From Alkalispirochaeta sp. (GTDB taxonomy: Bacteria; Spirochaetota; Spirochaetia; DSM-27196; Alkalispirochaetaceae): 64,000 bases of DNA. Position numbers and translations under genes: made by a program. The stretch spans positions 91,577 to 155,576 of the forward strand of contig CBDESZ010000005.1 in assembly GCA_965242725.1 (NCBI GenBank), written 5' to 3'. Every line of letters begins with the position of its first letter. Within the stretch, counting starts at the first letter, position 1. The notes under the pieces were generated by a model. That model was given only the letters and a program-made list of their open reading frames with translations, searched no databases and was not told where the DNA came from. This document shows, piece after piece, positions 33,864 to 52,255 of the stretch.

Positions 33864-33921
33864 GGTCTTAGCATAGTTTATATGTACAAATTGTCAATAC
33901 AAAAAAACATTTTGTACCGCG

Positions 33922-34970: not shown

Positions 34971-35098
34971 CGCCGTTTACCTTGTACGAAAGTGATTCGT
35001 TTTTAGAAACGGATGCGCCGTTCATGTCGATCGTTCATGTAAACCCGAGAATTGATAAATCGTCGCTCTGGCCAACGCAGAAGTAAAGATCGATCTCA

Positions 35099-35711: not shown

Positions 35712-35800
35712 GGTCCGGTGTTCCGATTTCAAGTCCGATCTTCACCATGCAATAATTGTAACCATATACTGGTTATTTATCAACCTCACCTTCAACGGCG

Positions 35801-35861
35801 GGATAACGACAGAGCTCAGTTGCGTGGCGAGAGCCACGACAACTGAAGTGACGTGTTATCT
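35801..35861 (-). repeat. attC (61 bp)
   Basis: Close to 33922-33982 in sequence; inverse core complements the core at 39354-39364. Confidence 0.88.
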
Positions 35862-35875
35862 GCCTGACGTCCTGC

Positions 35876-36302
35876 CTACCGATATTTTTCTTCAATCTGG
35901 CTTCGAAAAGACCGTGCAAGTCCCGGACTTTTTTCTAGGATTTCCATTATCGCTTTCGGATCTATTTCAAAGCTGTATGCATGTCGAATGAAGTGGCGAA
36001 ACGCCAAGAATCCGAGCAGATTCGATCGGGTTGTATTGTCGATCAGGGATTGTTTCTCGGCGAGTTCAAGAAGAGCCGTATGCCAATTATTGCCCGACGG
36101 GATCGGAATGGTTTGATCTTTTATGGCAAACTCGATCACCTTCTCGATGCCATTATAGTATTGTCGACAAGGAGAGTGCGGCCGCTCGAATTTCGATGTC
36201 GTCGAGTGGATTCTGATTCGATTTTCGGAGCAGCAAGTCTATCAAGTCCAATTCACGATTAATATTTTCAAACTCGCCATGAATTGCCGCCTTGTAGTCC
36301 AT
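35876..36302 (-). pseudogene. HEPN (HepT-like) RNase toxin with a 1-nt frameshift near 36160
   Basis: MDYKAAIH...AAALSLSTI / YNGIEKVIEF...FRHFIRHAY (RX4HXY). Confidence 0.8.
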
Positions 36303-36303
36303 C

Positions 36304-36600
36304 TTACGCGACCCGTTTGACATGTGGGTTGGAAAGTATTTGGCGACCGAAATTCACCTGCAAATCAAGATCGACAAGATCAACCGGTCTGGAGGACCGA
36401 TTCAATACCTCGCCGTAAATCGCGAAAAATTTGTTGGCGGGTATACCGCGAACGGCGAAGTCCAAATCCGAGGTCTCCGACGCATGATCTTCCGCAGCGG
36501 AACCGAAGAGATAGATTTCGGAACACCCAATAGACTTCAGGTAGTTGGTAATGATTTCGATATCATCTGCGATTGAATTAAGGGCGGCATTCCTTTCCAT
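36304..36600 (-). CDS. Minimal nucleotidyltransferase (MntA-like antitoxin)
   Basis: LFGS-X10-DLD motif, VDLVDL. Confidence 0.9.
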   Translation of the reverse strand: MERNAALNSIADDIEIITNYLKSIGCSEIYLFGSAAEDHASETSDLDFAVRGIPANKFFAIYGEVLNRSSRPVDLVDLDLQVNFGRQILSNPHVKRVA

Positions 36601-36717
36601 GTATTTCAGTATACATGGAAAAGAAAGCAGGATTGAATGGTTTGTCAAGGGCCGCGTAATTCCCCACCCCAGGGCCATCCATATTCCCCAGTGAAAATAA
36701 GGGTATCCGGGGGGGTG

Positions 36718-37488
36718 TCACGATTTTGGCGGAGCTGATTTTGAGGTGTGGGAGCCGTGTACTTCCTTCCGGTACGAGCGCCCTTTCGAAGTAATGAGTT
36801 TAATCGCTCCCGAGACCATGCGGTCGAGAATAGCACCACCAACGATGGGATCGGGAAAGATGCTGTACCAGTCCTGCGGCGGTCTGTTGGAAGTGAGAAT
36901 GGTCGAGGAGATACCGTTCCGTTCTTCGGCGATGATGTACAGCATCTCCGCCTCATGCTGATCAAGAGAGCGGAAGGCGAAATCATCGAGGATGAGGACA
37001 TCCACGGAACACGCTTTCTTGAGCATCCGTCGTTGCCGATCAGGTGAAGCGGTAAGGAGGCTGGAAAGCAGCCGCTGAGTGCTGCGGAACAGCACGGTGA
37101 ATCCCTGGCGGCATGCCTCGTGGCCGATCGCTTTCACAATGAACGTCTTCCCGATTCCGGGAGGACCGGCAATAACGAGGTTGGTGTGCTGCTGGATAAA
37201 CCGGCATGATGCCAGGTCGCGGATCGTTGCCGCCGGAAAGACTTCATCATTGAAACGGAAATCGAAGCGATCGAAGGTTTCCCGGGTTCCCAGGGATGCC
37301 TGACTCAACCGTTTGGTGAAGTTGTTCGCCTCCCGGTTTGCCAGTTCGTCGTGGAGAACCAGAGCGAGGAACTCGAGATAACCGAGGCTCTGCTCTTGAG
37401 CCTCAATCAACCGGTGATCAAGCTGCTGGTACGCTCCGGGCATGCGTAGTCGTTTAAGTTCGTGTTCAATTTCGTGAGCCTGCTGCAT
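36718..37488 (-). CDS. istB: IS21 helper ATPase IstB
   Basis: GPPGIGKT, LILDDF, TSNRP...AILDR. Confidence 0.93.
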   Translation of the reverse strand: MQQAHEIEHELKRLRMPGAYQQLDHRLIEAQEQSLGYLEFLALVLHDELANREANNFTKRLSQASLGTRETFDRFDFRFNDEVFPAATIRDLASCRFIQQHTNLVIAGPPGIGKTFIVKAIGHEACRQGFTVLFRSTQRLLSSLLTASPDRQRRMLKKACSVDVLILDDFAFRSLDQHEAEMLYIIAEERNGISSTILTSNRPPQDWYSIFPDPIVGGAILDRMVSGAIKLITSKGRSYRKEVHGSHTSKSAPPKS

Positions 37489-39079
37489 CGAGTTCCTCCT
37501 GAAGGTCAAAGAAATAGGTGATATCCCGTGCCATCGTCATATCGACAGCGGGCGTGGTAGAGAGTGTTCCTCGCCTGCCGGCGGTCCTGTCTAGTTCAAA
37601 CAATGCTTTGAACGTTTTGGGAACGACGATCCGGCGGCGCAGTGCGGTGAGGCAGTGAGTATCAAAGTCCGGATGTTCGCGGAATTCATCCATAACACGG
37701 AGTAGTCCCTGAGCCTGACGGGCGTTGAGATACGCGTGAGGCGCCAGGATTGCGGAAATCAGATCCCGGGCTGCACTCCCGTACGAATTCGCGCGCTGGA
37801 GAAGGTGTTGTGGATAGGACCCGTCCATCATCGCCTGTTTTTCCGCCGGAAAGTCGCTGGTGAAGTAATACACCCGCGTTCCCGGCTCATATGGATAGAT
37901 GCGGATACGCTCCGGGCCATGAAAAATCTCGATCAGGCGCCTGGTAGCGCGTACCGCCACCTGTTTTCCCCGGTATTTCGCCGGAACGGCAAAGCGCATC
38001 TTGTGGTAGCTCAGAAAGCCATCACCCTTGTGAACTTTCGGATAGGCCCAGGAAGCCGGCTCGAATCGCGATTCCGGGAGCGGTTTGAGTGCATTTTGCT
38101 CGGCCACAAACGCTTCCTCAGGTGGAATACGAGTCGTTCCATGCGGTTCCGTACCGTATTCGTCGACACACCATTGAAGCATGTAGCGGTTCATTTCCGT
38201 GAGGGTCGCGGTGGGATGGACTGCTCTGATGACACGATACGCTTCCCTGACAACCGGAATAATCCGCTCGACCTTCCCTTTATCTGTTGCCGTCACTACC
38301 CGAGCGGTATTCACAAAGGTTCCGTAATACTCAGCCACTTCTGCCAGAGACCGGTTCAGCTGCGGGTCCCAGAGGTCCGGTTTAATCACCGCAGCCTTCA
38401 GGTTATCCACCGTGAGAAACTCGGTGACACCGCCGTAGAAATGGAATATCTCAACCACGCTCTCCGCAAAGCTCTGTTCGCTCTGGCTGGTGACCAATTG
38501 GACAAAGGGCTTGCGAGAGTGAGCAAGAATTGCACAGAAGGCGTAGATCGTGCGATTCCGCCCATCCACGGCCAGAAGCCCCATGGTGCCGTAATCAAGT
38601 TGGACCTCCCGACCCGGCGGTAACTCAATACGGATATACGTCTTCTTTGCAACCTCCATTAAACCGTGTTCCCGGGCGAACCGTTTGAACGACGAGTATC
38701 CGATGGAGAGGTTATGGCGCCGGAGGATCACCCGATATGCCGATTTCGGGCGCATCGGTTTTTCGATTTTCCCGTTCTCATCTTTGGACGGAGCGATCAG
38801 TTCGCGCAGTTCATCAAGATGATCAATAAGCTGATCCCTCGCCGGTGTAGACTTCTCACGCGGCTGATCGGCAAGATCTCCTGCCCGTCTCTGAAACGCA
38901 TCCCGGCTGACTGCCAATTCTGCCGGCAGTAGTGACCGCTCCGAGAGAATCCTGATGTATTTCCCGATCGTCTTGCGATCCCATCCAGTGTGTATGGCGA
39001 TCGCGCTTTTGCTTTCTCCGGCGATGGCGCGACGGTATACCTCATAGAGGTGATCAATCTTCAGCATACGGTATCCCAT
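37466..39079 (-). CDS. istA: IS21 transposase IstA
   Basis: PPGREVQLDYG, DNLKAAV, DKGKVER. Confidence 0.93.
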   Translation of the reverse strand: MGYRMLKIDHLYEVYRRAIAGESKSAIAIHTGWDRKTIGKYIRILSERSLLPAELAVSRDAFQRRAGDLADQPREKSTPARDQLIDHLDELRELIAPSKDENGKIEKPMRPKSAYRVILRRHNLSIGYSSFKRFAREHGLMEVAKKTYIRIELPPGREVQLDYGTMGLLAVDGRNRTIYAFCAILAHSRKPFVQLVTSQSEQSFAESVVEIFHFYGGVTEFLTVDNLKAAVIKPDLWDPQLNRSLAEVAEYYGTFVNTARVVTATDKGKVERIIPVVREAYRVIRAVHPTATLTEMNRYMLQWCVDEYGTEPHGTTRIPPEEAFVAEQNALKPLPESRFEPASWAYPKVHKGDGFLSYHKMRFAVPAKYRGKQVAVRATRRLIEIFHGPERIRIYPYEPGTRVYYFTSDFPAEKQAMMDGSYPQHLLQRANSYGSAARDLISAILAPHAYLNARQAQGLLRVMDEFREHPDFDTHCLTALRRRIVVPKTFKALFELDRTAGRRGTLSTTPAVDMTMARDITYFFDLQEELDAAGSRN

Positions 39080-39435
39080 GACCCACAGTCCTCCTGCGCA
39101 TCAGGGTACCGGTATCACCCCATCAGGTGGGGAATATGGATGGCCCTATTGCGGAAAAACTGGGGAATATAAATGGCCCCGTGGGGCTCGGCGGGTGGGG
39201 AATATCCATGGCCCCAACGCCAAATTTATGGGGATTATGCCTGGCCCGCGACATGGTTCTCTTGTCAGATATCGATTATTCAGGCTTTACGTTGTAGAAC
39301 CCTCGGAATACTTTCTCGCATCGATTCCTGTACCTGTGATTTTTCGCAACGGAAGGCAGATAACGAGGCTGTAGAAAAAGTACCACGAATTGGTCCCAGA
39401 CGGTAGAATGGAGAAACGTCCGGCGGGAGGGGCTG

Positions 39436-40992
39436 ATGGCACGGTTTCGTGAGTACTCGTATGACCAGACTATGATGTTACCGGTGGCGCTGGGGCGGCA
39501 GCTGCAGCCAGGAAGTTTCGAACACGCCGTCAATCATCTCGTAGACCATTGCATCGATCGAACGGTCTTTGAAGAGCGCTATACAAATGACGACACCGGC
39601 GCCCCCGTCATCGATCCAACGATTCTTCTGAAAATCATCCTGTTCGCCTACTCCCGAGGTATCCTCTCAAGTCGGGCAATTGCCCGGGCATGCGAGGAAA
39701 ATGTCATCTTTATGGCGCTCTCAGCGGACACCCGCCCCCACTTCACCACGATCGCCAACTTCATCTCTTCGATGGACGGTGTTATTGCTCCGTTGTTTCG
39801 AGATGTGCTCACCGTTTGCTACACCGAGGGTCTCATCGGCCGGCAGATGTTCGCCATCGACGGCTGCAAGATCTCCTCGAACTGTGCCAAAGAGTGGAGC
39901 GGAACGAAAAAGGAGCTTCTGAAGAAGGCGGAGACGATCGAGCGGTCAATAGAAGCGTTGGTGGCACGCCACCGGGAAGAGGACGAGAAGCAGATTCGTT
40001 CTGAGAGCAGAGAGAGTGAAGAGCAAAAGATCGCGACATTGAAAAAGAAGGCGGAAAAGATCATCTCTTGGACCTGTGAGAACGAAGACCGGATCGGTCG
40101 GCGGGGTAAGCCGGTGAAAAGCAACCTCACCGACAACGAAAGCGCCAAGCTGGTGAGCTCTCACGGAGTCATCCAGGGCTACAATGGTATAGCCACCGTG
40201 GACGCCACGCATCAGATCGTGGTGGATGCCCAAGCCTTCGGAGACGTCCATGAGGCCGCTCATGTCAAAGAGATCATCAAGTCGGTGGAAGCCACTTTTT
40301 CCTTCATGGATCCCGGCAAGAAGCCCTTCGACTCGGTAGTCGTTACCGCCGACAGCGGCTTTAACAGCGAAGAGGCCACAGCCGCGGTACTGGATGCCGG
40401 TATTGATGCGTACATCGCGGATCCGCGATTTCGAAAACGGGATCCTCGCTTCGTCAATCAACAGGAGCATAAGGCAAAGACCACCGACCGGAAGCAAACT
40501 TCCAAGGCGCGAAAATACTTCACTGCTGACGAGTTCACCTTCAATGATGAGGGAGTTCTCGTCTGTCCGGCAGGCAAACCGATGAAGAGTAGTTGTCCGA
40601 ACTGGAAGGACAAAAAGGGCTACACCGGCCGAACCTTCAAGGGGTATCCGGTGCACTGCGGCGATTGCCCGTTGCGAGGCCAGTGCCTCCGAAGCCCCAA
40701 CTCACCGGTCCGGCAGGTGACCAAGACCGATCGAGGTCTGCGACACAACACGAAGAGCGCCGTCGCGCGGATGATCGAGCGCTTCGATACCGAGCGAGGC
40801 CGCCACTACTATTCAAAACGAATGGGAACCGTGGAACCGGTCTTCGGAAACACCAGAGCCGCGCTCGGTTTGGACCGTTTTACGCTCCGCGGTCGTCGGA
40901 AGGTGGACGCGCAATGGAAGCTCTACTGCATCGTACACAACATCGGAAAGCTAGCCCGATACGGACCGTCGTTCGCCAGCGCAACCGGCTAA
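39436..40992 (+). CDS. IS1182-family transposase
   Basis: LLKIILFAY...SSRAI, PHFTTIANF, IDGCK, ADSGF, VEPVFG. Confidence 0.93.
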   Translation: MARFREYSYDQTMMLPVALGRQLQPGSFEHAVNHLVDHCIDRTVFEERYTNDDTGAPVIDPTILLKIILFAYSRGILSSRAIARACEENVIFMALSADTRPHFTTIANFISSMDGVIAPLFRDVLTVCYTEGLIGRQMFAIDGCKISSNCAKEWSGTKKELLKKAETIERSIEALVARHREEDEKQIRSESRESEEQKIATLKKKAEKIISWTCENEDRIGRRGKPVKSNLTDNESAKLVSSHGVIQGYNGIATVDATHQIVVDAQAFGDVHEAAHVKEIIKSVEATFSFMDPGKKPFDSVVVTADSGFNSEEATAAVLDAGIDAYIADPRFRKRDPRFVNQQEHKAKTTDRKQTSKARKYFTADEFTFNDEGVLVCPAGKPMKSSCPNWKDKKGYTGRTFKGYPVHCGDCPLRGQCLRSPNSPVRQVTKTDRGLRHNTKSAVARMIERFDTERGRHYYSKRMGTVEPVFGNTRAALGLDRFTLRGRRKVDAQWKLYCIVHNIGKLARYGPSFASATG

Positions 40993-41127
40993 ACGAGAAC
41001 GGCTGGAACGATAGCTCCCCAGGGTGTGTACTCCGGTGATTTCGGACAGGGATTCCGGGCGAAAACGGACAGCTGCCTGAAGGAACAAAATCCTCGCCAT
41101 CACTCATAACAGCTGTCCGTTTTCAGG

Positions 41128-41877
41128 TCAATCTACCGCATAGAGTTTCCTCCTCACCGTGTCGCCGGTGATCTCAATTCGGTGAGAATGAAATGCAAGC
41201 CGATCCATGATTGCGTCGGCGATCGTCGGGTCGCCTATGAGGGCATGCCAGTTCTCTACCGGTTGCTGAGAGATGATCATTGTTGATTTCCGTCGGTGCC
41301 GGTCCTCAAGGATTTCAAGGAGAGCCATTCGAGAGGTATGGTTGAGCGGCTCCAGGCCGAAGTCGTCGATGAGCAGTAATGCGCTCTTCATGATTCGTGT
41401 CAGATGTTTCAGGTATGTTCCATCCGCCTTGGCCGCTTCGATTTCGTTGAACAGGCGAGATGCGGAAAAGTACGCCACGGAATGGCCGTGCTGGCACGCC
41501 TGATGCCCGAAGGCTGATCCGAGAAAGCTTTTTCCACAACCGGTTGGACCGGTGATGAGAAGATCCTGCCCCCGGGATATCCACGAGCAGTCGGCGAGCC
41601 GAAGAATCTGGTTCTTGTCCAGATTCCGATCCAGGGTGTAGTCGATATCTTCCAATGCAGCCTGGTAGCGGAACCGGGCAGCCCGGGTAAGCCGATCGAG
41701 CCGTCGGTTGTGCTTCTCATCCCATTCGGCGTCGATCAGGTACGTGATCGTCTCGTCGATGGTGAGATCCATGGTTTTTCCGGTTTCCTGAAGCGTGCGA
41801 AACGCCTGGGCCATTCCATGCAGGCGCATCTCGGTCATTCTGTTGATCGTTGCCTGATTATTGTTCATGGTGCTCAT
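41128..41877 (-). CDS. istB: IS21 helper ATPase IstB
   Basis: GPTGCGKS, LLIDDFG, DPTIADAIMDRL. Confidence 0.93.
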   Translation of the reverse strand: MSTMNNNQATINRMTEMRLHGMAQAFRTLQETGKTMDLTIDETITYLIDAEWDEKHNRRLDRLTRAARFRYQAALEDIDYTLDRNLDKNQILRLADCSWISRGQDLLITGPTGCGKSFLGSAFGHQACQHGHSVAYFSASRLFNEIEAAKADGTYLKHLTRIMKSALLLIDDFGLEPLNHTSRMALLEILEDRHRRKSTMIISQQPVENWHALIGDPTIADAIMDRLAFHSHRIEITGDTVRRKLYAVD

Positions 41878-41879
41878 CC

Positions 41880-43427
41880 TTACTTGTAGATTGCCGAATC
41901 ACGCAGATTCTTGTGGTCGGTGAAAAGAAGTACCCGATCATCCTCGTGATCATCCTTCTCCTGGCGCAAAATCTCGTCCAGATACCCACGGACATCCCGA
42001 TAGCTGATTCTGGAGTAGTTAAGGGCTCGTCGACAGGCCAAGTTCAGTCGATCTGAACCGACTTCCTGTGCCATATTCAGCACCCCAAGACAGGACTTGT
42101 ATGCCTGTTGCTCATGGGGTTTATCGCTCAGGAGCCGAGAAATCACCAGGAACGTCTCTTCTCCGATGGAATTGGCCCAGGAGGTGAACTTTTCGGCAGA
42201 CCAGGATTGAAAAAACCGGTGGTGCTTGGGCATGTGCTCGGCTTTTGTCGTGTACTGCCCTTTTTTCCGGCTGCGCCGGTGCTGGGCAACGCGTACGTTG
42301 TCGTGATATACCGCGACGATACGCTCATCGAAGATCACCTTTACCTGCACACCCTTCAACTGCCAGGGAACGGAGTAGTAGTGCTTATCTTCCGACAGGA
42401 TAAAGTGATAGTCCGGTGCAACCTTGTGGTTCTCGAAGGATTTCATCGGATACGGCGCGCTGGGCAGCGTCTTCAGCGCCGATCGTTCGATCTCCTCAAA
42501 CAACTGCCGTCGAGAGATTTGCAGCTTGGTCAATTCTCGAGTATTGTGGGTCTCAAGGCGTTCGGCGATGGCCTGGTTGAGCTCAGCCAACGAATGGAAC
42601 GTCCTGCCGTACAGCGGGGCGAAAATCCGCTGGTAGGTTAATTTGACGGTGTTCTCCGCCAGGGCCTTGTCTTTTGGTTTGTATGCCCTGGCGGGAATAA
42701 CCGTCGTTCGGTAATACTCGGCAAAATCGTCGAACAGCGGATTGATTTCCGGTTCGTATTTGCTTGCCTTGAGCACGGCCGCCTTCAGATTATCCGGTAC
42801 CAGAGCGCGGGGAACTCCGTCGAAATAGCGCAACGCCCGCTCGGTTGAACGGAGAAACGCTTCCTGTTTCTGGCTCTCGTCAGCTTCGACATACGCGAGT
42901 TGGCTTGCTCCGAGTACCGCAACGAATACCTCTGCCTGCTGTTCTTCGCCGTCTCGATAGTACGGGAAGGTCTCACCGGCGTAATCGATGTAGGCCATGT
43001 CTCCCGGTTCGTGAGGTTGCCGCATGGTGACCTCGCCGGATTCCAGGAACATGCCAAAGTGGTGACAGAACTGGCTGTAGCGATACCCGTCGGGGTGCTG
43101 CGTCCGGTACTCCTCCCACAACAGCTGCTTGGTCATTCCCCGGCGCTTTAACCGTTTTGCGTATTCCGGGAAGAGCGCCATCACCTGCGTGTACTGCTCG
43201 CTTTCTTCCTGCTTTTTCTCTTCGAACAGGCCAAGCAGTTCGTCATCGGTGAGCTCAAGGCTCTTCTCAAAGCTGATTCCGGTGCGTCTGAATCGCACCA
43301 GGTATTCACTGATCGTCGTCTTCGATACTCCGGTGAGTCGCGATACGTCCCGAAGCCCCAGTTTGCTCTCGTAGGTGAGCGCAAGCAATTTGCGCATGTG
43401 TTTCACAGGTATCCTCTCTCTCGGCAT
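41880..43427 (-). CDS. istA: IS21 transposase IstA
   Basis: IDYAG, VPDNLKAAV, PKDKALAEN. Confidence 0.93.
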   Translation of the reverse strand: MPRERIPVKHMRKLLALTYESKLGLRDVSRLTGVSKTTISEYLVRFRRTGISFEKSLELTDDELLGLFEEKKQEESEQYTQVMALFPEYAKRLKRRGMTKQLLWEEYRTQHPDGYRYSQFCHHFGMFLESGEVTMRQPHEPGDMAYIDYAGETFPYYRDGEEQQAEVFVAVLGASQLAYVEADESQKQEAFLRSTERALRYFDGVPRALVPDNLKAAVLKASKYEPEINPLFDDFAEYYRTTVIPARAYKPKDKALAENTVKLTYQRIFAPLYGRTFHSLAELNQAIAERLETHNTRELTKLQISRRQLFEEIERSALKTLPSAPYPMKSFENHKVAPDYHFILSEDKHYYSVPWQLKGVQVKVIFDERIVAVYHDNVRVAQHRRSRKKGQYTTKAEHMPKHHRFFQSWSAEKFTSWANSIGEETFLVISRLLSDKPHEQQAYKSCLGVLNMAQEVGSDRLNLACRRALNYSRISYRDVRGYLDEILRQEKDDHEDDRVLLFTDHKNLRDSAIYK

Positions 43428-43734
43428 TCCGTACTCCCTCACAATGATGTTACCCACCAGTTTGCCGGGAGTGCCCGTATTGATCGAGGATCTCTTCTGT
43501 CAGGCTGAATCGATTCCGGCGCTCCGGAAAAACTGTCCGTTTTCCGCCGGAATCGGTGTCCGGATTACGCCGGAATCACTGTCCGCTTTCCACCGGAATA
43601 CGTGTCCGTTTTGGGCCGGTGTACACAAGGGAACGGCAGCCGGGTATTAGTCCGCTCAGCCCGGGAAATCTGTCCTCCTCGGGGGCCCTGAAGAGAACCG
43701 AACTTCCGCCAAAACGGACTTTTTCTACAGGCAA

Positions 43735-43991: not shown

Positions 43992-44804
43992 CTATTCAGA
44001 CAAGAGTTCGTAGCGATCTCTTTCGTTGTCGGCAAGGCGTTCGTACTCCCTTCGATCAATTGCGATAATTTCCTTTGAGGACAGCCCCCTAATCGCGGCC
44101 TTTACCATTACGAAGTCCTCGCTGAATGACCTAAGCACAGTTTCGGGGTCAAAGCCCTTGCGTGCAAACGCAAATCCCAATCCGGGAAGATTCTGCAACC
44201 GTGAAGCGAGGTTGATGCACGGTCCGACGTAATCATCCCCTGATCCAATCGAGTAAACATTACCTTTTGCAATACCGCATCTAAGCATTTCTGGTGGATC
44301 AGGGTATTTTTTCGACACTTTAGGAAGGAAGCTATCTTCATACTCAAAGCAGATATTGCTCATCGACATGATTATGTTGTGTTGGGCTTCTCTTTTTACG
44401 CCAGCGACATTCCAAAGAACAAGAATCCCGTCGCCGAGGAATTTTGTATAAAACGGCAAACTGTGATATAGACGGTAGCCATCGTCGTCTTCTTTCATGA
44501 TTGTTTCTGTCCGAATAGAATCAAACAGCCAGCTTAAGAATTCTGCAAGAAAGGAATTGACAAATAGTTCAGGTTCAGTTTGCGAACAAAAATGCGTAAA
44601 TCCTTTTAGGTCGAAAATCGCGCAGATCGCTTTGGTTATGTCCGATTCGACATTAAGGTTCCCGAGTCTCAACAGGCCGACGTCGAACGAATCGATTTTT
44701 TGTTTGTCAAAGACGCGAACCCTCTTCCCGTTACGACTAACGAGTCTTGAATCCTTCTTGGACGCAACGTATCGCAAAACGCCTCCTTTCGTACTCCCGG
44801 CCAT
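43992..44804 (-). CDS. Stand-alone class III nucleotide cyclase-domain protein
   Basis: IFDLKGFT, KFLGDGIL, LRCGIAKG, DYVGPCINLASRLQ. Confidence 0.85.
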   Translation of the reverse strand: MAGSTKGGVLRYVASKKDSRLVSRNGKRVRVFDKQKIDSFDVGLLRLGNLNVESDITKAICAIFDLKGFTHFCSQTEPELFVNSFLAEFLSWLFDSIRTETIMKEDDDGYRLYHSLPFYTKFLGDGILVLWNVAGVKREAQHNIIMSMSNICFEYEDSFLPKVSKKYPDPPEMLRCGIAKGNVYSIGSGDDYVGPCINLASRLQNLPGLGFAFARKGFDPETVLRSFSEDFVMVKAAIRGLSSKEIIAIDRREYERLADNERDRYELLSE

Positions 44805-44855
44805 TGTATCATGTGGTGTTCCGTTGACTAGACTTCTTATAACGTAACTCTGGCT

Positions 44856-44965
44856 TCATAACGCAAAGGTGACCTGCGTGGCGTGATTGGCGTGGCCGTT
44901 GCCGGCGGAGCCGATTCGCAACGGCCATGACAATGGCCACGACAGGTCAACCGGTCTTGTTACAC
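44856..44965 (-). repeat. attC (110 bp) of non-coding cassette A
   Basis: L boxes GGT[T]GACC/GGTCACC; near-identical to 47040-47141. Confidence 0.88.
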
Positions 44966-45205
44966 TGCGATCGACACAGTTTTCGGAGTATCGCCATGCG
45001 GATATCTGGCACCAGGTTCTCGCCCGCGAATGTCTCGATTTGCTCGAAGGGCAAATCGAGCGTACGTGGGCGCGGAGCAGAAAAGGCACCGACAACAACG
45101 GGGTTGCCCCGGATTCCTTCCCGATTTTCGATTTAAAAAAATTGATCCGATCGGATGGTTTGTCCCTCACGTCCTACCAACGGAGCCGGTCATTTGCAGT
45201 GTAAC
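44959..45205. other. ORF-less structured gene cassette, copy A
   Basis: Bounded by GTTACACTGC/GCAGTGTAAC; paralog at 48752-49001. Confidence 0.85.
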
Positions 45206-45317
45206 GTTGGCTTGAGCTGCTGGCTGCGACCCGACCGAAGGGAGGGACTGGCGCGGTTCTTGCCGAAGAGCAAGAACCGTGACAGAAGCAACAGACTGCT
45301 CGAAGCCGTTGTTATGC
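45199..45317 (-). repeat. attC (119 bp)
   Basis: GCATAAC-N5-CTT[C]GAGC...GCTCAAG-N5-GTTACAC, with the canonical extrahelical base, 2 nt after the DUF262 stop. Confidence 0.92.
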
Positions 45318-45319
45318 AG

Positions 45320-46981
45320 TCAGCGATTCACAACGTCCTTGCAGATCGAGACAATGGCTGCTGTGCGCTGTGCCAGAAAATCGTCGTAGTTATCGTAAGA
45401 CAGGTTTTCAGGATGATCAGAATAGTGATCAACGAGGAGATGTTTTTTTATCTTGATTCCGGCATCCCTCAACTCTGCGAAATGGTTGGCGGGATCCTGA
45501 GCCCGTTTTCGAAGGTTCTCGGTTGCACCACAAAATCTGTAGTTGCCGATGTGGTTGATTCGGCTGGTTGGCAAATTTCTCAACTTGCTCTTCGGAAATA
45601 TATGGTCAATGTGTGGTTCGTTTCCTTTGTACCGAACGTGGAACGGACTACTTCCGTGCTGTTCGACATATATCAGGTTTAGGACGATAAAGCGCAACCG
45701 CATGTCAATAGAATCGCCGGTCAGTTCTACCTGTCTGTTCTGCCGCCGAAAATATGACTTTATCTCAGCAAGTGGGAAATCGCTAGGCGCACTCTTTTGC
45801 TGGATCTGAGCGCACGTGTTAAGCACTTGGTCTGTTCGAGCCGAAAACCAATTGAACATTTGAGAACCGTAGTAGTACGCCTTCAACAACGGGTAGGCTG
45901 TGACTGGTGGAGAAGGTGACCCGTAGAAATAGTTGAACACCGGAATCAGGGCGTTGTAAGAGCGCACGACCTTGTCAGAGTACAGTTGAAGCTGGTTCTT
46001 CAAAAAATCTGATAACTGCAGAAACGCGCGTTCTAATTTATTCCAATTGTCCTGAATCTTGGCCAACACCTGGGCGCCTGCGTTTGAAGCCAGATACTTG
46101 GGCGACAATACTGCTGATTCACCAACAGCAACCATAATCGCTTTCAATGCGAAAGTCTTATCGAAAAGTAAGCGCCCGTCGCTGTTGAGATCAGCCACCA
46201 CGTTTTCGATGTTTTCTTCGACCGGCGTCCACGCCTCCTTCATGACCGCAAACAGCAAATCCGATGGTTCGAGTTTCGTACCTCCGGAATTCACTCGCAC
46301 GAAAATGTTCAAAATGTTTTTGTAATCATATTCTTCGGACGCGGTGCCATCGAGTTCATCAACCCACAGGTACGTGTCTTCACGCAGTATTGATGCAAGT
46401 TGTGCCACATTTCTTCGAACTAAACGTTGGCGTTGCCGTCGAGCATCTGACGATTCCTCGAGAGAATCATCCAACTGGTCATTAATCTCATCGGAAATAT
46501 CATTGGCGTTTTTCTTGTTGGCGTAGAGTGAACTAATCGCGAACCATGGGAAGTCAAGCTGGTCGTTACTCAATTCAAAACGATACGAGATCCCGTCTTC
46601 AATCTCTTCGTCGCCTGACAGAAGATCGATGAACAGTCGCTTGTCACCGAAAGTTCCATCATATGCGAAGAAGAGGGATTGAAGACGTTGTTGACCATCA
46701 AGTACAAGGACTTTGGTCCTACCCTCTTGGCTCACCGTCGAATCGTAGTAGTCTCGGAGCACCGGATCCTCTTCGTAGTTGTCCATGAACCTCCGACATT
46801 GGATTTCGTCATCGGTTTTCCAAAATAGGAGCGTCTGAAACGGGTAGTTCTTCATCAAAGTGTCAAAGAACCTGACCACTTGCTGAAAATCCCACACGAA
46901 CGGACGTTGAATATGCGGTAGGTACAACTGTCGGTTCCGAGACTGAAGAAGACTGTTCAGAGATATTGGTTTATAGGCCAT
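45320..46981 (-). CDS. DUF262 + HNH (DUF1524-like) protein, GmrSD-like
   Basis: QRPFVW, LDGQQRL, FVRVNSGG; C-terminal HIDHIFPKS...IGNY...EN. Confidence 0.88.
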   Translation of the reverse strand: MAYKPISLNSLLQSRNRQLYLPHIQRPFVWDFQQVVRFFDTLMKNYPFQTLLFWKTDDEIQCRRFMDNYEEDPVLRDYYDSTVSQEGRTKVLVLDGQQRLQSLFFAYDGTFGDKRLFIDLLSGDEEIEDGISYRFELSNDQLDFPWFAISSLYANKKNANDISDEINDQLDDSLEESSDARRQRQRLVRRNVAQLASILREDTYLWVDELDGTASEEYDYKNILNIFVRVNSGGTKLEPSDLLFAVMKEAWTPVEENIENVVADLNSDGRLLFDKTFALKAIMVAVGESAVLSPKYLASNAGAQVLAKIQDNWNKLERAFLQLSDFLKNQLQLYSDKVVRSYNALIPVFNYFYGSPSPPVTAYPLLKAYYYGSQMFNWFSARTDQVLNTCAQIQQKSAPSDFPLAEIKSYFRRQNRQVELTGDSIDMRLRFIVLNLIYVEQHGSSPFHVRYKGNEPHIDHIFPKSKLRNLPTSRINHIGNYRFCGATENLRKRAQDPANHFAELRDAGIKIKKHLLVDHYSDHPENLSYDNYDDFLAQRTAAIVSICKDVVNR

Positions 46982-47039
46982 TGTTTTACCCCAATCTAAT
47001 CATATCACAGGTTTGTTGGAGTTCGAGTCGAAATTGACT

Positions 47040-47141
47040 GCATAACGCAGAGGTGACCTGCGTGGCGTGATTGGCGTGGCCGTTGCCGGCGCAGCCGATA
47101 GCAACGGCCATGACAATAGCCACGACAGGTCAACTGTCTTG
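47040..47141 (-). repeat. attC of non-coding cassette B, split by IS110 (remainder 48752-48758)
   Basis: Removing the IS restores ...CAACTGTCTTGTTACAC, matching attC 44856-44965. Confidence 0.88.
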
Positions 47142-47217
47142 ATACTCATTAAGGCCTCCCCTGGGAGGTGCGGTAAACTACCGCTATACCCAATCCCTTC
47201 CCGAAGGAGGAGACCTA

Positions 47218-48318
47218 ATGAGGTTCTATAACGAACAGCACGAATTCTACGTTGGTATCGACCATGGTTGCGTTCCTCGGCTCCGCCTGCGGTACGCAAC
47301 CTAAGCAAGAGAGATGTTCGCCTGCGTCCTCAATCGTGATGGCTACGTTCTTCTTCATCGAAACATGAAAGCCGATCGCGATCACCTTGATCGGCTGGTA
47401 CGACGCTTTCCCGGTGACATAGTGATCGCGGTGGAATGCATCTTCACCTGGTATTGGATTGCAGACTTCTGCGATGAACGGGATATCCCATTTGTCTTGG
47501 GGCACGCGCTCTACATGAAAGCCATCCACGGCGGGAAGTCCAAGAACGATAAGATCGATTCACATAAGATCGCAACGATGCTGCGGGCCGGGATGCTTCC
47601 GGAAGCGTATGTGTATCCTCGGGAAATGCGTGCAACACGAGATCTCCTTCGGCGACGCGAATACTTCATGCACCAACAGTCGGAACTTCTGACCCATGTG
47701 AAGAACACCAACACCCAGTACAATTATCCCGCTTTCCAAAAACGAATAGCGGCGACGGCGAATCGACAAGGATTAGAGGAGCGATTCGAAGAACCAAGCG
47801 CCCGAAAAAGCATCGAAGCTGACCTTCATCTCCTGGACGTCTATCACCGCGTTCTACTCGACCTGGAAGCAGAGATAAAACGGCAGGCGAAGCACCACGA
47901 TCCGGTCGCATTTCACCTCCTCCAGACGATCCCCGGGGTTGGTCCAATTCTCTCGCTGGTCATTCTTTATGAGATCCATGACATCAATCGCTTTCCAAAG
48001 GTCGGAAACTTCATCTCCTACGCCCGCCTGGTCAAATGTGCTCACGAGTCCGCCGGGAAACGATCGGGAAGTGGCAATAACAAAATCGGAAATGCGCATC
48101 TGAAATGGGCATTCAGCGAAGCGGCAGTCATTTTCCTCCGTGATCAGGAGGATGCGAAACGTCTACAGCAACGACTCATCCAGAAGTACGGAAAGGCCAA
48201 GGCACTTTCGATCATCGCTCAGAAACTCGGAAGAACTGTCTATTTTATGTTGAAGAGAAAGGAGCCTTTTGTAGCGAAGCGATTCTTTGGAGACGGCGTG
48301 CAGGAGCCGGCAGCATAA
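47218..48318 (+). pseudogene. IS110-family DEDD transposase interrupted by a ~36-bp hairpin insertion with an adjacent in-frame TAA (47302-47304)
   Basis: GGAGG RBS, MRFYNEQHEFYVGID...AREMFAC; VEC, KNDKIDS, IPGVG, ESAGK, GNAHLKWAF. Confidence 0.88.
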
Positions 48319-48455
48319 CTGGACCACCACGCGACGGGTTGTCTTTCGATGAGGACCTTCTATGCAGCACGATTGCCAACTCCCCATCATGCCCACCAGT
48401 CGCGAGTCCCTAGCGTTTTGATTAGACCTGTACGTCGGTCTCCTCTTTTGCAAAT

Positions 48456-48680
48456 ACGAGTGATGCGGGATATTTCCCGCGGTTTGTCCCGCTCCGACCT
48501 GCCCAAGTAACTGCGACCATATGGATCGCGTCCTTTGAATCAGGCGGATGTCGGGTACCGAGAGAATTCTACGGCACGCAGCAGGTGTGACCGTCGATAC
48601 GTGTTTGGTGCAGACCGCTTGTCAGCACCCGGACCTCAGAATTGCGAATCAAGCGGCGTGATATCTCCGGCATCACTCGT
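48456..48680 (+). ncRNA. Candidate bridge/seek RNA in the IS110 3' non-coding region
   Basis: ACGAGTGATGC (48456) pairs with GCATCACTCGT (48670) and encloses two stem-loops with internal loops. Confidence 0.55.
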
Positions 48681-48751
48681 TCGGATATTGGAAACGGCTA
48701 TCGCCGGGTCCGGCTACCACTTTGTCATTGACAGCAGGAGGCCTAATACGT

Positions 48752-49001
48752 GTTACACTGCGATCGATACAGATTTCGGAGGTTCGCCAGCCGGACAACT
48801 GGCACCATGTTCTCGCCCACGAATGTCTCGATTTGCTCGAAGGGCAAATCGAGCGTACGTGGGCGCGGAGCTGAATAGGCACTGACAACAACGGGGTAAC
48901 CCCGGATTCCTTCTCCATTTTCGATTAAAAAATAAAATTGACCTGATCGGTTGGTTTGTCCCTCACGTCCTCCCAACGGAGCCGGTCATTTGCAGTGTAA
49001 C
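48752..49001. other. ORF-less structured gene cassette, copy B
   Basis: Diverged paralog of 44959-45205. Confidence 0.85.
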
Positions 49002-49120
49002 GAAAAGGTTACGTGCTGGCTGCGGCCCGAGCGATAGCGAGGGATTGGCGCGATTGTTGCCGGCGAGAGCCGAGCAACAATCGTGACAAAGCAACAGACA
49101 CGTGAACCGTCGTGTTATGT
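48995..49120 (-). repeat. attC (126 bp)
   Basis: ACATAAC...GGTT[C]ACG / CGTAACC...GTTACAC; 13-bp complementarity to the core at 49936-49948. Confidence 0.9.
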
Positions 49121-49121
49121 C

Positions 49122-49418
49122 TCACGTATTCCCACGACGTATATGTACTTCGGTTACCGCTCCTAACGCGTGAGCCACTCGCTTCAAAAACGCCAAAGAT
49201 AGATTCCGATAATTACCCGATTCGAGCCGGGCGATCGCCGGTTGTGACGTTCCGACCCGAGACGCCAATTCCTTCTGGGTCAAGTTTGCCATCTTTCTGA
49301 GGGCGATAACTTCTTTCGCGACCTCAAATTCTTCGGATGTTTCGTCATATTCTCGTCGGAACGTATCGTCGCGAAGTTCTTCCTCCAGGAGGTCATCATA
49401 TCTTTTCGATTCCATCAT
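49122..49418 (-). CDS. HigA-like HTH antitoxin
   Basis: LTQKELASRVGTSQPAIARLESG. Confidence 0.9.
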   Translation of the reverse strand: MMESKRYDDLLEEELRDDTFRREYDETSEEFEVAKEVIALRKMANLTQKELASRVGTSQPAIARLESGNYRNLSLAFLKRVAHALGAVTEVHIRRGNT

Positions 49419-49747
49419 TATTTCTCCTCCAAATACTGCGTCTTGATCCTCAGTGCCCGTTCAATTTCTCGACGATCCGTTTTATCCGATTTTTTGACGA
49501 ATCCTGATGTCACGACGAATACGCGTTCGCCCTCGAAGAAATAGACCGATCGGCAAATATTCGATCCAAGTCGAACCCGCAATTGACTCAGATCCGATCC
49601 AACCAGTTTTCGTGAATGGGGCAGCGGCAATTCGGGTCCAAACTGTTTCAGTAATTCGATTGATCGAAACGCTTTCGCCCGCATCTTCGCGTCGAGGGAA
49701 CGCAGAAAAACGATTGCCGGTTCCAGCAGAAGAACGTCCCATTCCAT
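49418..49747 (-). CDS. HigB/RelE (Gp49-like) toxin
   Basis: LPLPHSRKL...LRVRLGSNICR...SGFVKKSDKTDRREIERA. Confidence 0.9.
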   Translation of the reverse strand: MEWDVLLLEPAIVFLRSLDAKMRAKAFRSIELLKQFGPELPLPHSRKLVGSDLSQLRVRLGSNICRSVYFFEGERVFVVTSGFVKKSDKTDRREIERALRIKTQYLEEK

Positions 49748-49752
49748 AAGGA

Positions 49753-49794
49753 ATTATATCACAATTGATATAGAGAAGATATCAATATTGTGAT
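49753..49794 (-). promoter_or_regulatory. TA promoter/operator
   Basis: TGn-TATAAT 5 nt before ATG; inverted repeats TATATCA/TGATATA and ATCACAAT/ATTGTGAT. Confidence 0.6.
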
Positions 49795-49941
49795 TTCTGC
49801 ATTGGTTACATTTTCGACCTCGTTGATCGGTAGTTTTTGAACCTCGGGGAGCTCGGTAATGCGATCATCAATTCTGGGCAGCCACCGCATTTCAGATCGT
49901 GATTGAAGCATTTACGGGTAGGGTTACCGTGTTTCCGTGAG

Positions 49942-50045
49942 ACATAACGCCGCCGCTCACCTGCGGCACTCCCGGCCACGTTACACCCGCACGGGGGCGC
50001 CCGCGAGTACGACCCGGTGCTGCCAGGTGCAGCGGCCTGTTAGCC
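49942..50045 (-). repeat. attC (104 bp)
   Basis: GGCTAAC-N5-GCT[G]CACC...GGTGAGC-N6-GTTATGT; GNAT stop lies in the inverse core. Confidence 0.9.
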
Positions 50046-50555
50046 GGCCCGTTCTATTCCCGGTTCCCCGTCCCCGATTCGGAGTGCAAAGTAAACATCT
50101 CCGTTCGCATGGTGGGTAACCGTGAAGCCGTTCGCGAGATAGAATCGGATCACGTCATCCCATGTTTCGGTTGTCTCGAGCACGACTATACGTACCCCCA
50201 GGCACTCCGCGCGGCGAAGGAGCTCGCGCAAGATCAGTCGTCCCACCCCCCGGCGTCTGCGATTCGCCGCAACTGACATCCGGACGATCTCAGCGACCCC
50301 CTTCCTGTGCCCAGTCGTCTTCAGTGCACCAGTCCCAATGATTCGGTCGCTTTCCAGGGCGACGAGGAATGTCGCATCTGCGTAACTCGTGCAAATCTCC
50401 TCCAGGTCCGGATTCTTGGACGTATCCCTGTAGCCCCAGTGCTCTTCTAAGCCGGTGAGAATCAACGCGCGCGCCTCAGCCTGGTCGGACGGTTCTATGG
50501 TCCTGAGACGAATGGTCTCCGACGTAATAACGTGCTTGTCGTGTCCTGCTAACAT
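50040..50555 (-). CDS. GNAT family N-acetyltransferase (first cassette)
   Basis: RMSVAANRRRRGVG motif A, IRFYLANGF. Confidence 0.9.
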   Translation of the reverse strand: MLAGHDKHVITSETIRLRTIEPSDQAEARALILTGLEEHWGYRDTSKNPDLEEICTSYADATFLVALESDRIIGTGALKTTGHRKGVAEIVRMSVAANRRRRGVGRLILRELLRRAECLGVRIVVLETTETWDDVIRFYLANGFTVTHHANGDVYFALRIGDGEPGIERAG

Positions 50556-50692
50556 CCTCTACTCCCGACTATTGCACGATCGCCGCGTCGCAAGTACGCC
50601 GCTGCACCAAAGTTATACCTATAAGCGCAACGCCCTTTTTCCTGCTTGGCAACGGTGAAAACATTATAACACCGCATCGGGGGGACGTGACG
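50547..50692 (-). promoter_or_regulatory. Putative attI-like site with a Pc-like extended -10 promoter
   Basis: Core GTTAGCA (50553-50547) has no attC arm upstream; TGT-TATAAT at 50671-50663 points into the array. Confidence 0.45.
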
Positions 50693-50857
50693 GCGGAGGA
50701 TAATCTTTCTTTTTCGGTCGTAGGTGGAATGAGACGGAAGAATTCGCCGCCGTATAAATCCGAAACAACTACACCACAAGACGCCCGTATTGGACATGTC
50801 CCCCATTTGCGGTTCGCGCAGGCAAGGGCGACAGGGACCGGCCGACTCTCCTGCCTC

Positions 50858-52255
50858 TCACACCATCCCCGACGGATCCAGCAGCTCCGCCACCTTCTCA
50901 TCAGGCAGGACTCCCGCCTCCAGGACGACGTCCCGAATCTTTCGTTTCTCTTTGTACGCCTTGTAGGCAAGTTTGGTGGCCTGGTCGTAGCCGATCTCCG
51001 TGGCAAGGGGGGTGACGAGGGCGAGGGACCACTCGATCCAGTAGTCAAGGCGCTCCCGGTCCGCCTCGAGCCCCGTGATCGCCTTGTCCGCAAATACCCG
51101 GCATGTGTTGGCGAGGATGTCGATGGAGCTCAGCGTCTCGAGGGCGATGAGGGGGTTCATCATGTTCAGCTCAAGCGGCGCATTCTGGCCGGCGATGGTG
51201 ACGCTCACCACCTTGCCGTTTACGTAGGCCGCCACCTGAATGACCATTTCCGGAATGACCGGGTTGACCTTGCCGGGCATGATGGAGCTCCCCGGTTGCA
51301 GGCTGGGCAGGACGATCTCGCCCAGGGCGCCCCGGGGGCCGCTTGCCAACAGGCGCAGATCATTGGCGATTTTCATAAGGCTCGTCGCCAGGGTGTTGAG
51401 GGCGCCCATGAGGGAGACCTGGGCGTCCCGGCTCGCGATGGCTTCAAATTTGTTGGGGGCGCTTTTGAAGGGGAGGCCCGTGTCACGGGCGATGCCTGCG
51501 GCGACGGCGTCGGGGAAGTCGGGGTGACAGTTGACGCCCGTTCCCAGGGCGGTGCCGCCCAGGGCAAGCTCCTCGAGGTCCGGGAGCGTCGCGCGCAGGC
51601 GTTCCCGCGCCTTTTCGATCTGTACGGCGTAGCCGGAGAACTCCTGTCCCAGGGTCATCGGGACCGCGTCCTGTAAATGGGTGCGTCCGAGCTTGATGAG
51701 GTCGGCAAACTCCCGTTCCTTCTTCCGCAGCGCCGCGGCGAGGTGATCCAGTGCTGACAGGAGACCCTCCGCCTCCACCCGGTTGGCGATGTGGATTGCC
51801 GTGGGGATGACGTCGTTTGAGGACTGGCCGCGGTTGACGTGGTCGTTGGGATGGACGGGGGAGCGGGTGCCCCGCGGCTCTCCGAGGATTTCATTGGCGC
51901 GGTTGGCGATGAGCTCGTTGGTGTTCATGTTCCAGCTCGTGCCGCTGCCGGTCTGGAAGACGTCGATAGGGTAGTGGGCGTCCCACGTTCCTTCATAGAC
52001 TTCTTCGGCGGCTTGATTGATGGCGTCGGCGAGTTTCCCGTCCACCAGGCCGAGCTGTCCGTTGACCCGGGCCGCGTTCTTCTTGATCAGCGCCAGCGCG
52101 CGAATCATCGGTGCGGGTATGCGCATGGGACTCACGCCGAAGTTTTCCACCGCCCGCTGTGTCTGGGCGCCCCAGTACGCCCATCCCGGTATTTCAATCT
52201 GCCCCATGGAGTCCGATTCTGTGCGGGGCTTCTCGTTGGTTTCGTGTGTGGCCAT
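50858..52255 (-). CDS. fumC: Class II fumarate hydratase
   Basis: FQTGSGTS, GQSSND, GRTHLQDA, GSSIMPGKVNP. Confidence 0.95.
   Translation of the reverse strand: MATHETNEKPRTESDSMGQIEIPGWAYWGAQTQRAVENFGVSPMRIPAPMIRALALIKKNAARVNGQLGLVDGKLADAINQAAEEVYEGTWDAHYPIDVFQTGSGTSWNMNTNELIANRANEILGEPRGTRSPVHPNDHVNRGQSSNDVIPTAIHIANRVEAEGLLSALDHLAAALRKKEREFADLIKLGRTHLQDAVPMTLGQEFSGYAVQIEKARERLRATLPDLEELALGGTALGTGVNCHPDFPDAVAAGIARDTGLPFKSAPNKFEAIASRDAQVSLMGALNTLATSLMKIANDLRLLASGPRGALGEIVLPSLQPGSSIMPGKVNPVIPEMVIQVAAYVNGKVVSVTIAGQNAPLELNMMNPLIALETLSSIDILANTCRVFADKAITGLEADRERLDYWIEWSLALVTPLATEIGYDQATKLAYKAYKEKRKIRDVVLEAGVLPDEKVAELLDPSGMV

Follow-up and report, generated by a model that had tools for sequence, protein, structure and literature searches.

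A stretch of 64,000 nt (the window) from the genome of Alkalispirochaeta sp. (assembly GCA_965242725.1, contig CBDESZ010000005.1, positions 91,577 to 155,576) contains an insertion sequence (IS) of the IS110 superfamily lodged within an attC site. Integrons assemble adaptive and resistance genes, with attC sites as their docking points. The IS carries an interrupted recombinase (transposase) gene followed by a long non-coding region, and it separates two parts of an attC whose cassette orientation is that of the opposite strand (Table 1). A preliminary description, made from the letters of the window, had placed an IS110/IS1111 element at 47040–48758, with a promoter formed by its joined ends and a candidate guide RNA. 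All of its statements about the sequence (ends, repeats, promoter, stem and motifs) were reproduced on inspection. The element does lie inside the proposed span, but attC sequence makes up the first 102 bp and the last 6 bp of that span.

The left junction reads ...CAACTGTCTTG|ATACTCATTAAGGCCTCC and the right junction GGAGGCCTAATACGTG|TTACACTGCG. A TG dinucleotide is present at each junction (47140–47141 and 48751–48752), the empty site has a single TG, and the core can be assigned to either side; counted with one TG, the element is therefore 1,611 bp long. The empty-site reference is an uninterrupted paralogous attC upstream, part of a cassette boundary (44851–45206) that is 90–94% identical to both flanks of the IS: 44851–44915 matches 47035–47099 with 94% identity, and 44958–45139 matches 48751–48932 with 90%. 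It reads GGTCTTG|TTACAC. The proposals that the IS had entered at the TG of an attC inverse-core box, and that removing it would rebuild an attC like that at 44856–44965, are borne out by this comparison, the insertion point being TTG|TTA in the inverse-core end. The paralogous site has the build of an attC: an imperfect palindrome with RYYYAAC and GTTRRRY bounds (here ..ATAAC and GTTAC..) and unpaired bases on one arm. Folded as single-stranded DNA (ssDNA), it forms a long imperfect hairpin of −32.8 kcal/mol (z = −5.2), and none of 200 shuffled sequences was as stable. All genes between the attC sites are on the minus strand. Read in that orientation, the IS thus occupies the inverse core (GTGTAA|C), and its gene is antisense to the cassettes.

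The subterminal inverted repeats described previously are present and span 8 bp. Site-specific insertion with a short core common to element and target, and without terminal inverted repeats, is characteristic of the IS110 superfamily; both the window element and its relatives show it. The window copy is the only one in the 4.34-Mb genome.

Table 1. Position of the insertion sequence, its parts, the attC sites concerned and the neighbouring transposase genes in the window
Feature	Position	Strand	Remarks	Basis
Insertion sequence	47142..48752	+	1,611 bp including the right-hand TG core copy	Junctions and empty-site comparison
Left (larger) part of the interrupted attC	47039..47141	-	Ends in TG 47140–47141; L''...R' part in cassette orientation	
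Right part of the interrupted attC, TTACACT	48753..48759	-	Minus strand is the inverse core GTGTAA	
Paralogous uninterrupted attC	44856..44965	-	Empty-site reference	Sequence identity and ssDNA fold
Left subterminal inverted repeat, AGGCCTCC	47152..47159	+	10 nt inside the left end	
Right subterminal inverted repeat, GGAGGCCT	48738..48745	+		
Recombinase (transposase) gene, interrupted	47218..48318	+		Pfam domains and alignment to intact relatives
Palindromic insert breaking the gene	47266..47301	+	36 nt; 11-nt terminal inverted repeats (10/11 matching)	
RNA domain 1	48295..48436	+	Proposed site-specific target-binding loop	Covariation and guide-to-flank tracking
Closing stem of 11 bp	48456–48466 with 48670–48680 (48456..48680)	+	Encloses domain 2	
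RNA domain 2	48481..48616	+	Three-way junction	Covariation
-35 hexamer TTGACA of the circle-junction promoter	48728..48733	+		
Mutator/IS256-type transposase	29957–31284		Split in two ORFs	
Two IS21-type pairs	36718–39079 and 41128–43457			
DDE_Tnp_1_6 transposase	39436–40992			

The recombinase gene and its relatives

Both DEDD recombinase domains of the IS110 superfamily were detected in the gene product (PF01548, 6.6e-13; PF02371, 1.9e-19), which is 73, 66 and 58% identical to intact relatives. Non-coding DNA amounts to 434 nt downstream of the gene against 76 nt upstream, a layout of the IS1111 type, and the non-coding region is 414–588 nt long in 16 of 17 relatives measured. A search of genome contigs, with one genome per species, found 360 relatives. 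Of these, 79 loci (53–73% identical) were fetched; they derive from Pirellulales, Spirochaetota, Desulfobacterota, Nitrospirota, Acidobacteriota, Planctomycetota and others, and the anatomy of the element is shared by a copy on a Vibrio campbellii plasmid. Both ends could be set in 51 copies; copy L026 was dropped for a wrong right end, and that of L004, off by one, was corrected by hand. The end-defined set comprised 43 distinct element sequences and 50 distinct sites. The relatives keep the left end ATACTCATTAAGGCCTCC, a right end of the form ..TTGACN-N..-GGAGGCCTTATA[N]G[T/G]G, and subterminal repeats of 8–12 bp.

Joining the right end to the left end places TTGACA 18 nt ahead of GATACT, a −10 hexamer that arises only by this joining. 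Among the 43 distinct elements, TTGACN was present in all, the 18-nt spacer in 41 and GATACT in 37; the junction promoter proposed upstream of the transposase gene is thus a conserved feature. A consensus scan of the linear element found no promoter-like site inside it, with 1.4 expected. The 76-nt leader contains, at 47152–47217, two hairpins that are also conserved in relatives, CCTCCC..GGGAGG followed by GCGGTA..TACCGC. The first overlaps the subterminal repeat, and both precede a ribosome binding site (GGAGGAG, 47206–47212).

Two predicted RNA domains conserved in the 3′ region

The non-coding region folds into two separate domains. The outer helix of domain 1 has 10 bp (48295–48304 with 48427–48436) and encloses an inner hairpin; the domain overlaps the last 24 nt of the recombinase gene. 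In an alignment of 30 sequences, its 14 pairs were paired in 86.7% of cases against 61.4% after shuffling, double changes were found at 14 of the 14, and the covariation score was 0.70 against 0.26; on four of five measures none of 500 shuffles scored as high. Domain 2 has an outer helix (48481–48487 with 48610–48616), a hairpin (48571–48576 with 48588–48594) and an arm whose internal loop contains GTAAC on the 5′ strand (48507–48511) and TTTG on the 3′ strand (48534–48537). Its 20 pairs were paired in 89.1% of cases in 33 sequences against 75.9% after shuffling, with double changes at 18 of them. None of 500 shuffles was as high on any of the five measures, and controls slid along the alignment were 34–46% paired. 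The 11-bp stem reported earlier is exactly complementary and present in the minimum-energy fold, and a similar closing stem can be drawn by eye in the nearest relatives. No family was found in an Rfam scan of 44000–51000 at E ≤ 1.

A terminator-like hairpin was also noted at 48424–48441, after the left-target guide described below, with a T-run reaching 48449. This hairpin and the covarying outer helix of domain 1 are in competition, so it was not read as a terminator; it could be a switch, or a chance feature of the window copy.

Candidate guide sequences that track the target and the element ends

Domain 1 presents two candidate target guides. The right-target guide, GCATAAC, lies at 48313–48319, its TAA being the stop codon of the recombinase gene, and the corresponding 5′ strand in relatives ends in G[C/T][C/A]TAAC. 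The left-target guide, GCGTTTTG, lies at 48413–48420, and the 3′ strand of relatives ends in N5-TTG before ATTGG. Guides were compared with the flanks of their own elements at 39 sites, after motif and spacing filters had removed L023, L024, L066, L028, L044, L048, L049 and L050. They matched at 10.77 of 15 positions on average against 9.58 when permuted, and at 4.18 against 3.07 when only the eight variable letters were counted, with no permutation of 5000 as high in either case (on the reading of such figures, see below). The match was 14/15 in L074 and 13/15 in L002, L062 and L042; in L002 and L062, guide and flank alike have ..ATG in place of the ..TTG found elsewhere. A cruder extraction, which kept L044–L050, gave for them a left guide, ACGATTTG, that agrees at 8 of 8 positions with each of the four left flanks.

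The donor guides are placed in the junction strands of domain 2, on either side of its hairpin. The strand after the hairpin reads CGATACGTG, and the ATA[N]GTG within it equals the right end plus core; in the window this left-donor guide is ATACGTG (48597–48603), an identity that the preliminary description had already pointed out. When end positions were scanned against alignment columns, right-end position −4 and window column 48600 formed the top pair (1.2 bits, 86% identity). The variable base of ATA[N]GTG equals that of the right end in 29 of 33 elements (A in 13, G in 10, C in 4 and T in 2); in three of the mismatches it is G for A, compatible with an RNA–DNA wobble, and L004 does not fit. 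The right-donor slot is at 48560–48570, before the hairpin. In most relatives this strand is the reverse complement of left-end positions 3–9 followed by T-TC, as in GATGAGTTTC, and unusual left ends are met by compensatory variants (ACATAGT in L013 and L014, AATCAT(T) in L041). Within the subclade of the window element, ATGAGT-like motifs 45–70 nt upstream of the second TAAC hint at a relocated right-donor guide in L002, L004 and L062. An asymmetry of wobbles, considered as a sign of RNA–DNA pairing (25 vs 15 transitions for the right-donor guide, 4 vs 1 for the left-donor guide), was too weak to be used.

The loops are thus not invariant: their guide letters covary with the right end and the flanks across relatives, and the 3′ region behaves like a bridge or seek guide RNA, as had been supposed. 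Chance is excluded by this conservation and covariation in relatives, not by the single copy in the window.

The supposition that the RNA comprises 48456–48680 only, with GTAAC as its target loop, fared less well. It could draw on the exact 11-bp stem and on the GTAAC/TTTG loop, which does hold the invariant target letters and gives a weak signal against the flanks: 9.08 vs 8.62 of 15 positions (31 of 5000 permutations as high), or 2.71 vs 2.24 for the variable letters (20 of 5000). The structured non-coding region begins about 160 nt upstream of that stem, however, with a separate domain of stronger covariation whose guides track the flanks much better (4.18 vs 3.07). The GTAAC loop exists but is the weaker of two, and a complete RNA starting at the stem is unlikely. 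Both target-type loops share, by eye, GA[G/A]CC-N-TAACTGGA and TTGATTGG(G)A, and so look like duplicates.

A role of the conserved 3′ blocks as DNA, either as internal copies of the ends or as recombinase-binding sites under concerted evolution, would agree with the likeness of the ATA[N]GTG block to the right end over some 11 nt, including part of the subterminal repeat, and transcription of the 3′ region is presumed. Such a role nevertheless appears distinctly improbable, since 34 helix pairs covary as in a folded single strand and the domain 1 guides track flanks that are outside the element. Further, the left end recurs as its reverse complement in one donor block and the right end as a direct copy in the other, which is the two-strand pattern of a bridge RNA, and homologous systems use RNA (PMC11187229, PMC11208160).

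Target sites of the lineage

Nearly all of the roughly 50 relatives with both ends defined are inserted at TTG|TT(A), often in attC-like hairpins. Close to the cut, the 45 sites whose flanks were complete hardly vary, with T at −3 (38), T at −2 (44), G at −1 (45), T at +1 and at +2 (45 each), A at +3 (34) and G at +5 (31); further conserved letters were T at −17 (37), C at −16 (43), T at −12 (41) and A at −9 (39). An inverse-repeat partner of the attC type (..AAC, 44–110 nt upstream) was detected with z ≥ 2 in 21 of 42 sites and with z ≥ 3 in 15. In 20 of 42 sites the minimum-energy fold of the joined flanks pairs the junction GTT with an AAC upstream of it, a crude test that fails on the window site despite its evident attC.

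Insertion at sites other than attC had been named as an observation that would tell against an attC-programmed element. A few relatives (L052, L064 and L066 among them) do seem to lie at sites that are not attC-like, and TTG|TT is retained there. The copies tend to cluster: one Spirochaetia chromosome contains up to six, five of them within about 35 kb, and one Spirochaetota contig has three within 16 kb. At 24 of 31 loci the element is flanked by open reading frames (ORFs) that read in the direction opposite to the recombinase gene. Position and orientation in attC are fixed, as in the IS1111 elements that target attC.

Relation to the IS1111 elements that target attC

IS1111-family elements targeting attC were reportedly described by Tetu and Holmes in 2008 and by Post and Hall in 2009. 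For this group (hereafter the IS1111-attC group) a guide RNA, the seekRNA, was demonstrated experimentally in ISKpn4 and ISPst6 and predicted in ISPa25 (Siddiquee et al. 2024, PMC11187229). According to the same source, the IS1111 group is defined, after Partridge & Hall, by subterminal inverted repeats of 7–17 bp, a long non-coding stretch following the recombinase gene and a transposase akin to that of IS1111 over its full length, and the transposases of ISPst6, ISKpn4 and ISPa21 are at least 76% identical among themselves, with ISPa25 at 46%.

The window element resembles these in several respects: it is an IS with a DEDD recombinase, subterminal repeats and a 3′ non-coding region that inserts at one attC end in a fixed orientation. 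Its recombinase, however, belongs with another lineage. ISGsu4 and ISMahy12 (ISfinder sequences from the source data of Siddiquee et al.) share with the window lineage, by eye, the N-terminal motifs MRFY..Y.GIDLHA... and HALYMKA.HGGK.K.D.ID..KIA, and ISGsu4, ISGsu5, ISMahy12, ISShfr7 and ISShwo5, all filed as IS110 in ISfinder, appear by eye to be of the same recombinase lineage. In the tree table of Durrant et al. (PMC11208160), ISGsu4, ISGsu5, ISShfr7 and ISShwo5 fall in one protein cluster. The table in PMC11187229 files ISGsu4 as IS110, with 20 copies and five unique insertion events. The published matrix (PMC11187229) gives it 17.4, 17.1 and 17.7% identity to ISPst6, ISKpn4 and ISPa21, and no more than 22.6% to any of the first 160 IS, a set that covers IS1111A/C, the IS1111 block and ISPa25.

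With ISGsu4 as a proxy, full-length kinship to IS1111 transposases was thus not found, and the window element is, by its sequence, a member of the ISGsu4/ISMahy12 lineage, placed in the IS110 superfamily with an IS1111-like layout. The earlier label IS110/IS1111 holds for superfamily and layout; by the ISGsu4 values the element has an IS1111 layout but falls outside the described IS1111-attC group. That it is an ordinary member of that group (ISPst6, ISKpn4, ISPa21, ISPa25) using their seekRNA is, in spite of the shared target, repeats and 3′ region, very improbable: apart from the 17.1–17.7% (ISPst6, ISKpn4, ISPa21) and ≤22.6% (block with ISPa25) identities of ISGsu4, no plasmid record at least 60% identical to the recombinase was found (Pseudomonas matches were about 33%), and a blastn search with the non-coding region gave no match in 72,556 plasmids. 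Two plasmid tblastn matches, examined as possible ISKpn4, were an unrelated IS110 context and the Vibrio copy of the window lineage.

Capture of the element as a gene cassette by an integron integrase is the least credible explanation: the insertion point does coincide with the G|TT of a core-type box, but the element starts with ATAC instead of TT and lacks an attC of its own, the site is the inverse core in cassette orientation and not the R' crossover, all relatives have their own conserved ends and promoter, and no integrase over the TIGR02249 cut-off was found in the genome (91.8% complete; best 77 vs 265 bits).

A proposed RNA-guided mechanism

The window thus very probably contains a single, likely immobile copy of an RNA-guided IS of the ISGsu4/ISMahy12 lineage, inserted at TTG|TTA of an attC inverse core (R''). 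This rests on the anatomy of the element, the conserved structure of its non-coding region and the guide-to-DNA covariation observed in the comparisons above. That the RNA is expressed and bound by the recombinase, how the chemistry proceeds and what the second TAAC/TTTG loop does are inferences.

If it works like IS621, ISEc11 and ISKpn4, the element would excise as a circle, and its joined ends would create a sigma-70-type promoter transcribing the recombinase gene together with the downstream non-coding RNA. Domain 1 would then present the 7-nt GCATAAC to the top strand, right of the cut, and the 8-nt GCGTTTTG to the bottom strand, left of it. Domain 2 would present the donor guides in its three-way junction: a slot that in relatives complements the left end, and ATACGTG, which has the letters of the right end and the core. 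Strand exchange at the shared TG core would then be the work of the recombinase bound to these loops.

Several observations weigh against this proposal. The paired target core (TTG|TTA) is so short that specificity must have a further source, and about half of the sites had no clear attC partner in the crude tests. The permutation tests ignore the kinship of the sequences and the presence of several sites within one array, so their figures are not probabilities. The guides themselves are uneven. Across the clade the right-donor guide matches at a modest 6.85 of 10 positions against 6.26 permuted (0 of 2000 as high), with many transversions, and the window slot forms with its own left end only three Watson–Crick and two wobble pairs of 10; the left-donor blocks of L004 and L067 (..CCAGTG and ..CCAGCG) mismatch their right ends. 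The window target guides agree with their own site at 10 of 15 positions. Transcription of the window element's RNA is itself a presumption. No circle junction was found in the contigs of four sequencing runs, although contigs could hardly show one, and no true empty (excised) site was seen in them. A contig joint that skipped from 47134 to 48751 with CGGTCT between was recognized as the paralogous empty attC, not an excision product.

A more far-reaching idea, for which the present data make only a tentative case, is that the ISGsu4-like lineage represents a second, independently evolved family of attC-targeting RNA-guided IS, distributed over many environmental phyla, with a duplicated target loop, the two copies of which may divide the work. 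One loop, free-standing, would track each site, and the other, generic (TAAC/TTTG only), would sit in the donor domain. The first may serve the choice of insertion site and the second may recognize occupied TTG|TTA junctions for excision or direct transfer. For another IS110 element, a preprint (10.1101/2025.10.25.684509) proposes direct transfer by a bridge RNA acting together with a truncated target-loop RNA.

The window copy and its 36-nt palindrome

The recombinase gene of the window copy is broken. Its N-terminal 16 codons are followed by the palindromic insert and an in-frame TAA (47302–47304), and the longest open frame restarts at 47314. Compared with four intact, colinear relatives (58–73% identical), this is the sole lesion: the Leu-His that follows GID is replaced by 14 codons, the last of them TAA, a net insertion of 12 codons. 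The GID, the first motif of the catalytic region, is thereby cut off from the rest, and the open frame restarts beyond it. The palindrome is missing from the four aligned relatives and is unique in the genome.

Judged by its sequence, the window copy is probably inactive and immobile. The preliminary description had gone further and seen in it a recombinase programmed to the attC sites of its host. That view was not upheld: besides the 10/15 match at its own site, the 14-mer specified by the guides has no perfect site in the genome, and 12 places with two mismatches. The single copy, the broken gene and the poor match of the guides to their own site therefore point to a recently disabled passenger, probably acquired by transfer and not tuned to this host. 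Decayed copies seem common among relatives. Copies L004 and L067, which are diverged, lie about 5 kb apart on one Spirochaetota contig; L067 lacks the usual stop codon, and L062 has an internal stop.

The palindrome appears to belong to a small family with further members in metagenome contigs of relatives. One such contig, from a wetland and about 93% identical to the element, has a diverged palindrome at the equivalent place, and a sludge contig carries the palindrome alone, within unrelated flanks. Relatives in wetland and sludge metagenomes also have an inverted 39–40-nt insert of the palindrome family at the equivalent of 47697–47701. In the wetland contig, 13 of 16 listed substitutions between 47334 and 47439 fall on third codon positions, so interrupted genes may stay under selection, as judged from single contigs of depth 2–5. 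A scan of metagenomes with a degenerate pattern for the palindrome gave 112 matches, of which the 80 inspected all looked like chance hits in GC-rich coding DNA.

Comparison with known RNA-guided elements

Seek and bridge RNAs, and attC-targeting IS as a kind, are already known. Bridge RNAs are reported in IS110/IS1111 (PMC11208160, PMC13626964). Durrant et al. (PMC11208160) predicted them for 93% of IS1111 elements, in the right end, and noted that many IS1111 orthologues have their donor guides in a multi-loop. In the IS1111-attC group, as described in PMC11187229, target choice depends on an RNA encoded by the non-coding region, with its match to the top strand located 5′ of that to the bottom strand; the predicted RNA of the window lineage has the same order. 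The differences are the recombinase lineage (about 17% identity by the ISGsu4 proxy), a longer non-coding region with two separately folded domains, and the presence of two target-type loops.

IS621 (Durrant et al. 2024, PMC11208160; Hiraizumi et al. 2024; PMC13626964) likewise has four guides, each of which includes the core. In IS621 and in the window lineage the top strands are paired by the right-target and right-donor guides and the bottom strands by the left-target and left-donor guides, and in both a promoter is rebuilt at the circle junction. In contrast to IS621, the window RNA lies 3′ of the gene, the order of the guides within the loop is reversed, the core is TG and not CT, the donor guides are in a three-way junction instead of an internal loop, and a third loop, resembling a target loop, is present. 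Group IIC-attC introns are also mobile elements specialized on attC, but their mechanism, that of retroelements equipped with ribozyme and reverse transcriptase, is unrelated.

A full-text literature search found nothing on attC targeting by, or an RNA of, the ISGsu4-type lineage (ISfinder and subscription journals were outside its reach), and the attC targeting and duplicated target loop of this lineage appear to be undescribed so far. The comparisons suggest that a deep-branching IS lineage apart from the IS1111-attC group has also specialized on attC, across many phyla. If so, IS invasion would be a general feature of environmental cassette arrays, in which attC-homing elements can block, split or move cassettes. 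To the field of bridge recombinases the clade offers natural cases of separate target and donor folds, donor guides in a three-way junction and an extra target-like loop, features that bear on split-RNA designs and on the balance of excision and insertion. The window copy, a decayed example, is of little interest alone.

The cassette array and neighbouring mobile elements

Further sites of similar build to the paralogous attC are found at 45199–45317 and 49942–50045. The cargo of the cassettes (45320–46981, 49122–49747 and 50040–50555) comprises a protein with a GmrSD-type endonuclease N-domain, a Gp49/HTH pair that resembles a toxin–antitoxin pair, a GNAT acetyltransferase and one unassigned ORF. 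A fumarase gene follows the array; together with the failure of any integrase to reach the cut-off in the genome, this places the array among those of the integrase-less kind. An attC with an ORF-less cassette of 235 bp is duplicated at 90–94% identity (44851–45206; 47035–47141 plus 48753–49002), and the element is in one of the copies.

Two other repeat pairs were noted, 32580–32675/34849–34944 and 33916–33979/35795–35858. The second (..ATAACGAAAGAGCTCAG...GTTA) looks like a pair of short attC sites, so the cassette array may reach to about 32 kb. The region 29957–43457 is a dense patch of other mobile elements (Table 1). Between two of its transposase genes, at 39126–39247, a 54-nt direct repeat (GGTGGGGAATATGGATGGCCC...) is present in two copies 68 nt apart.

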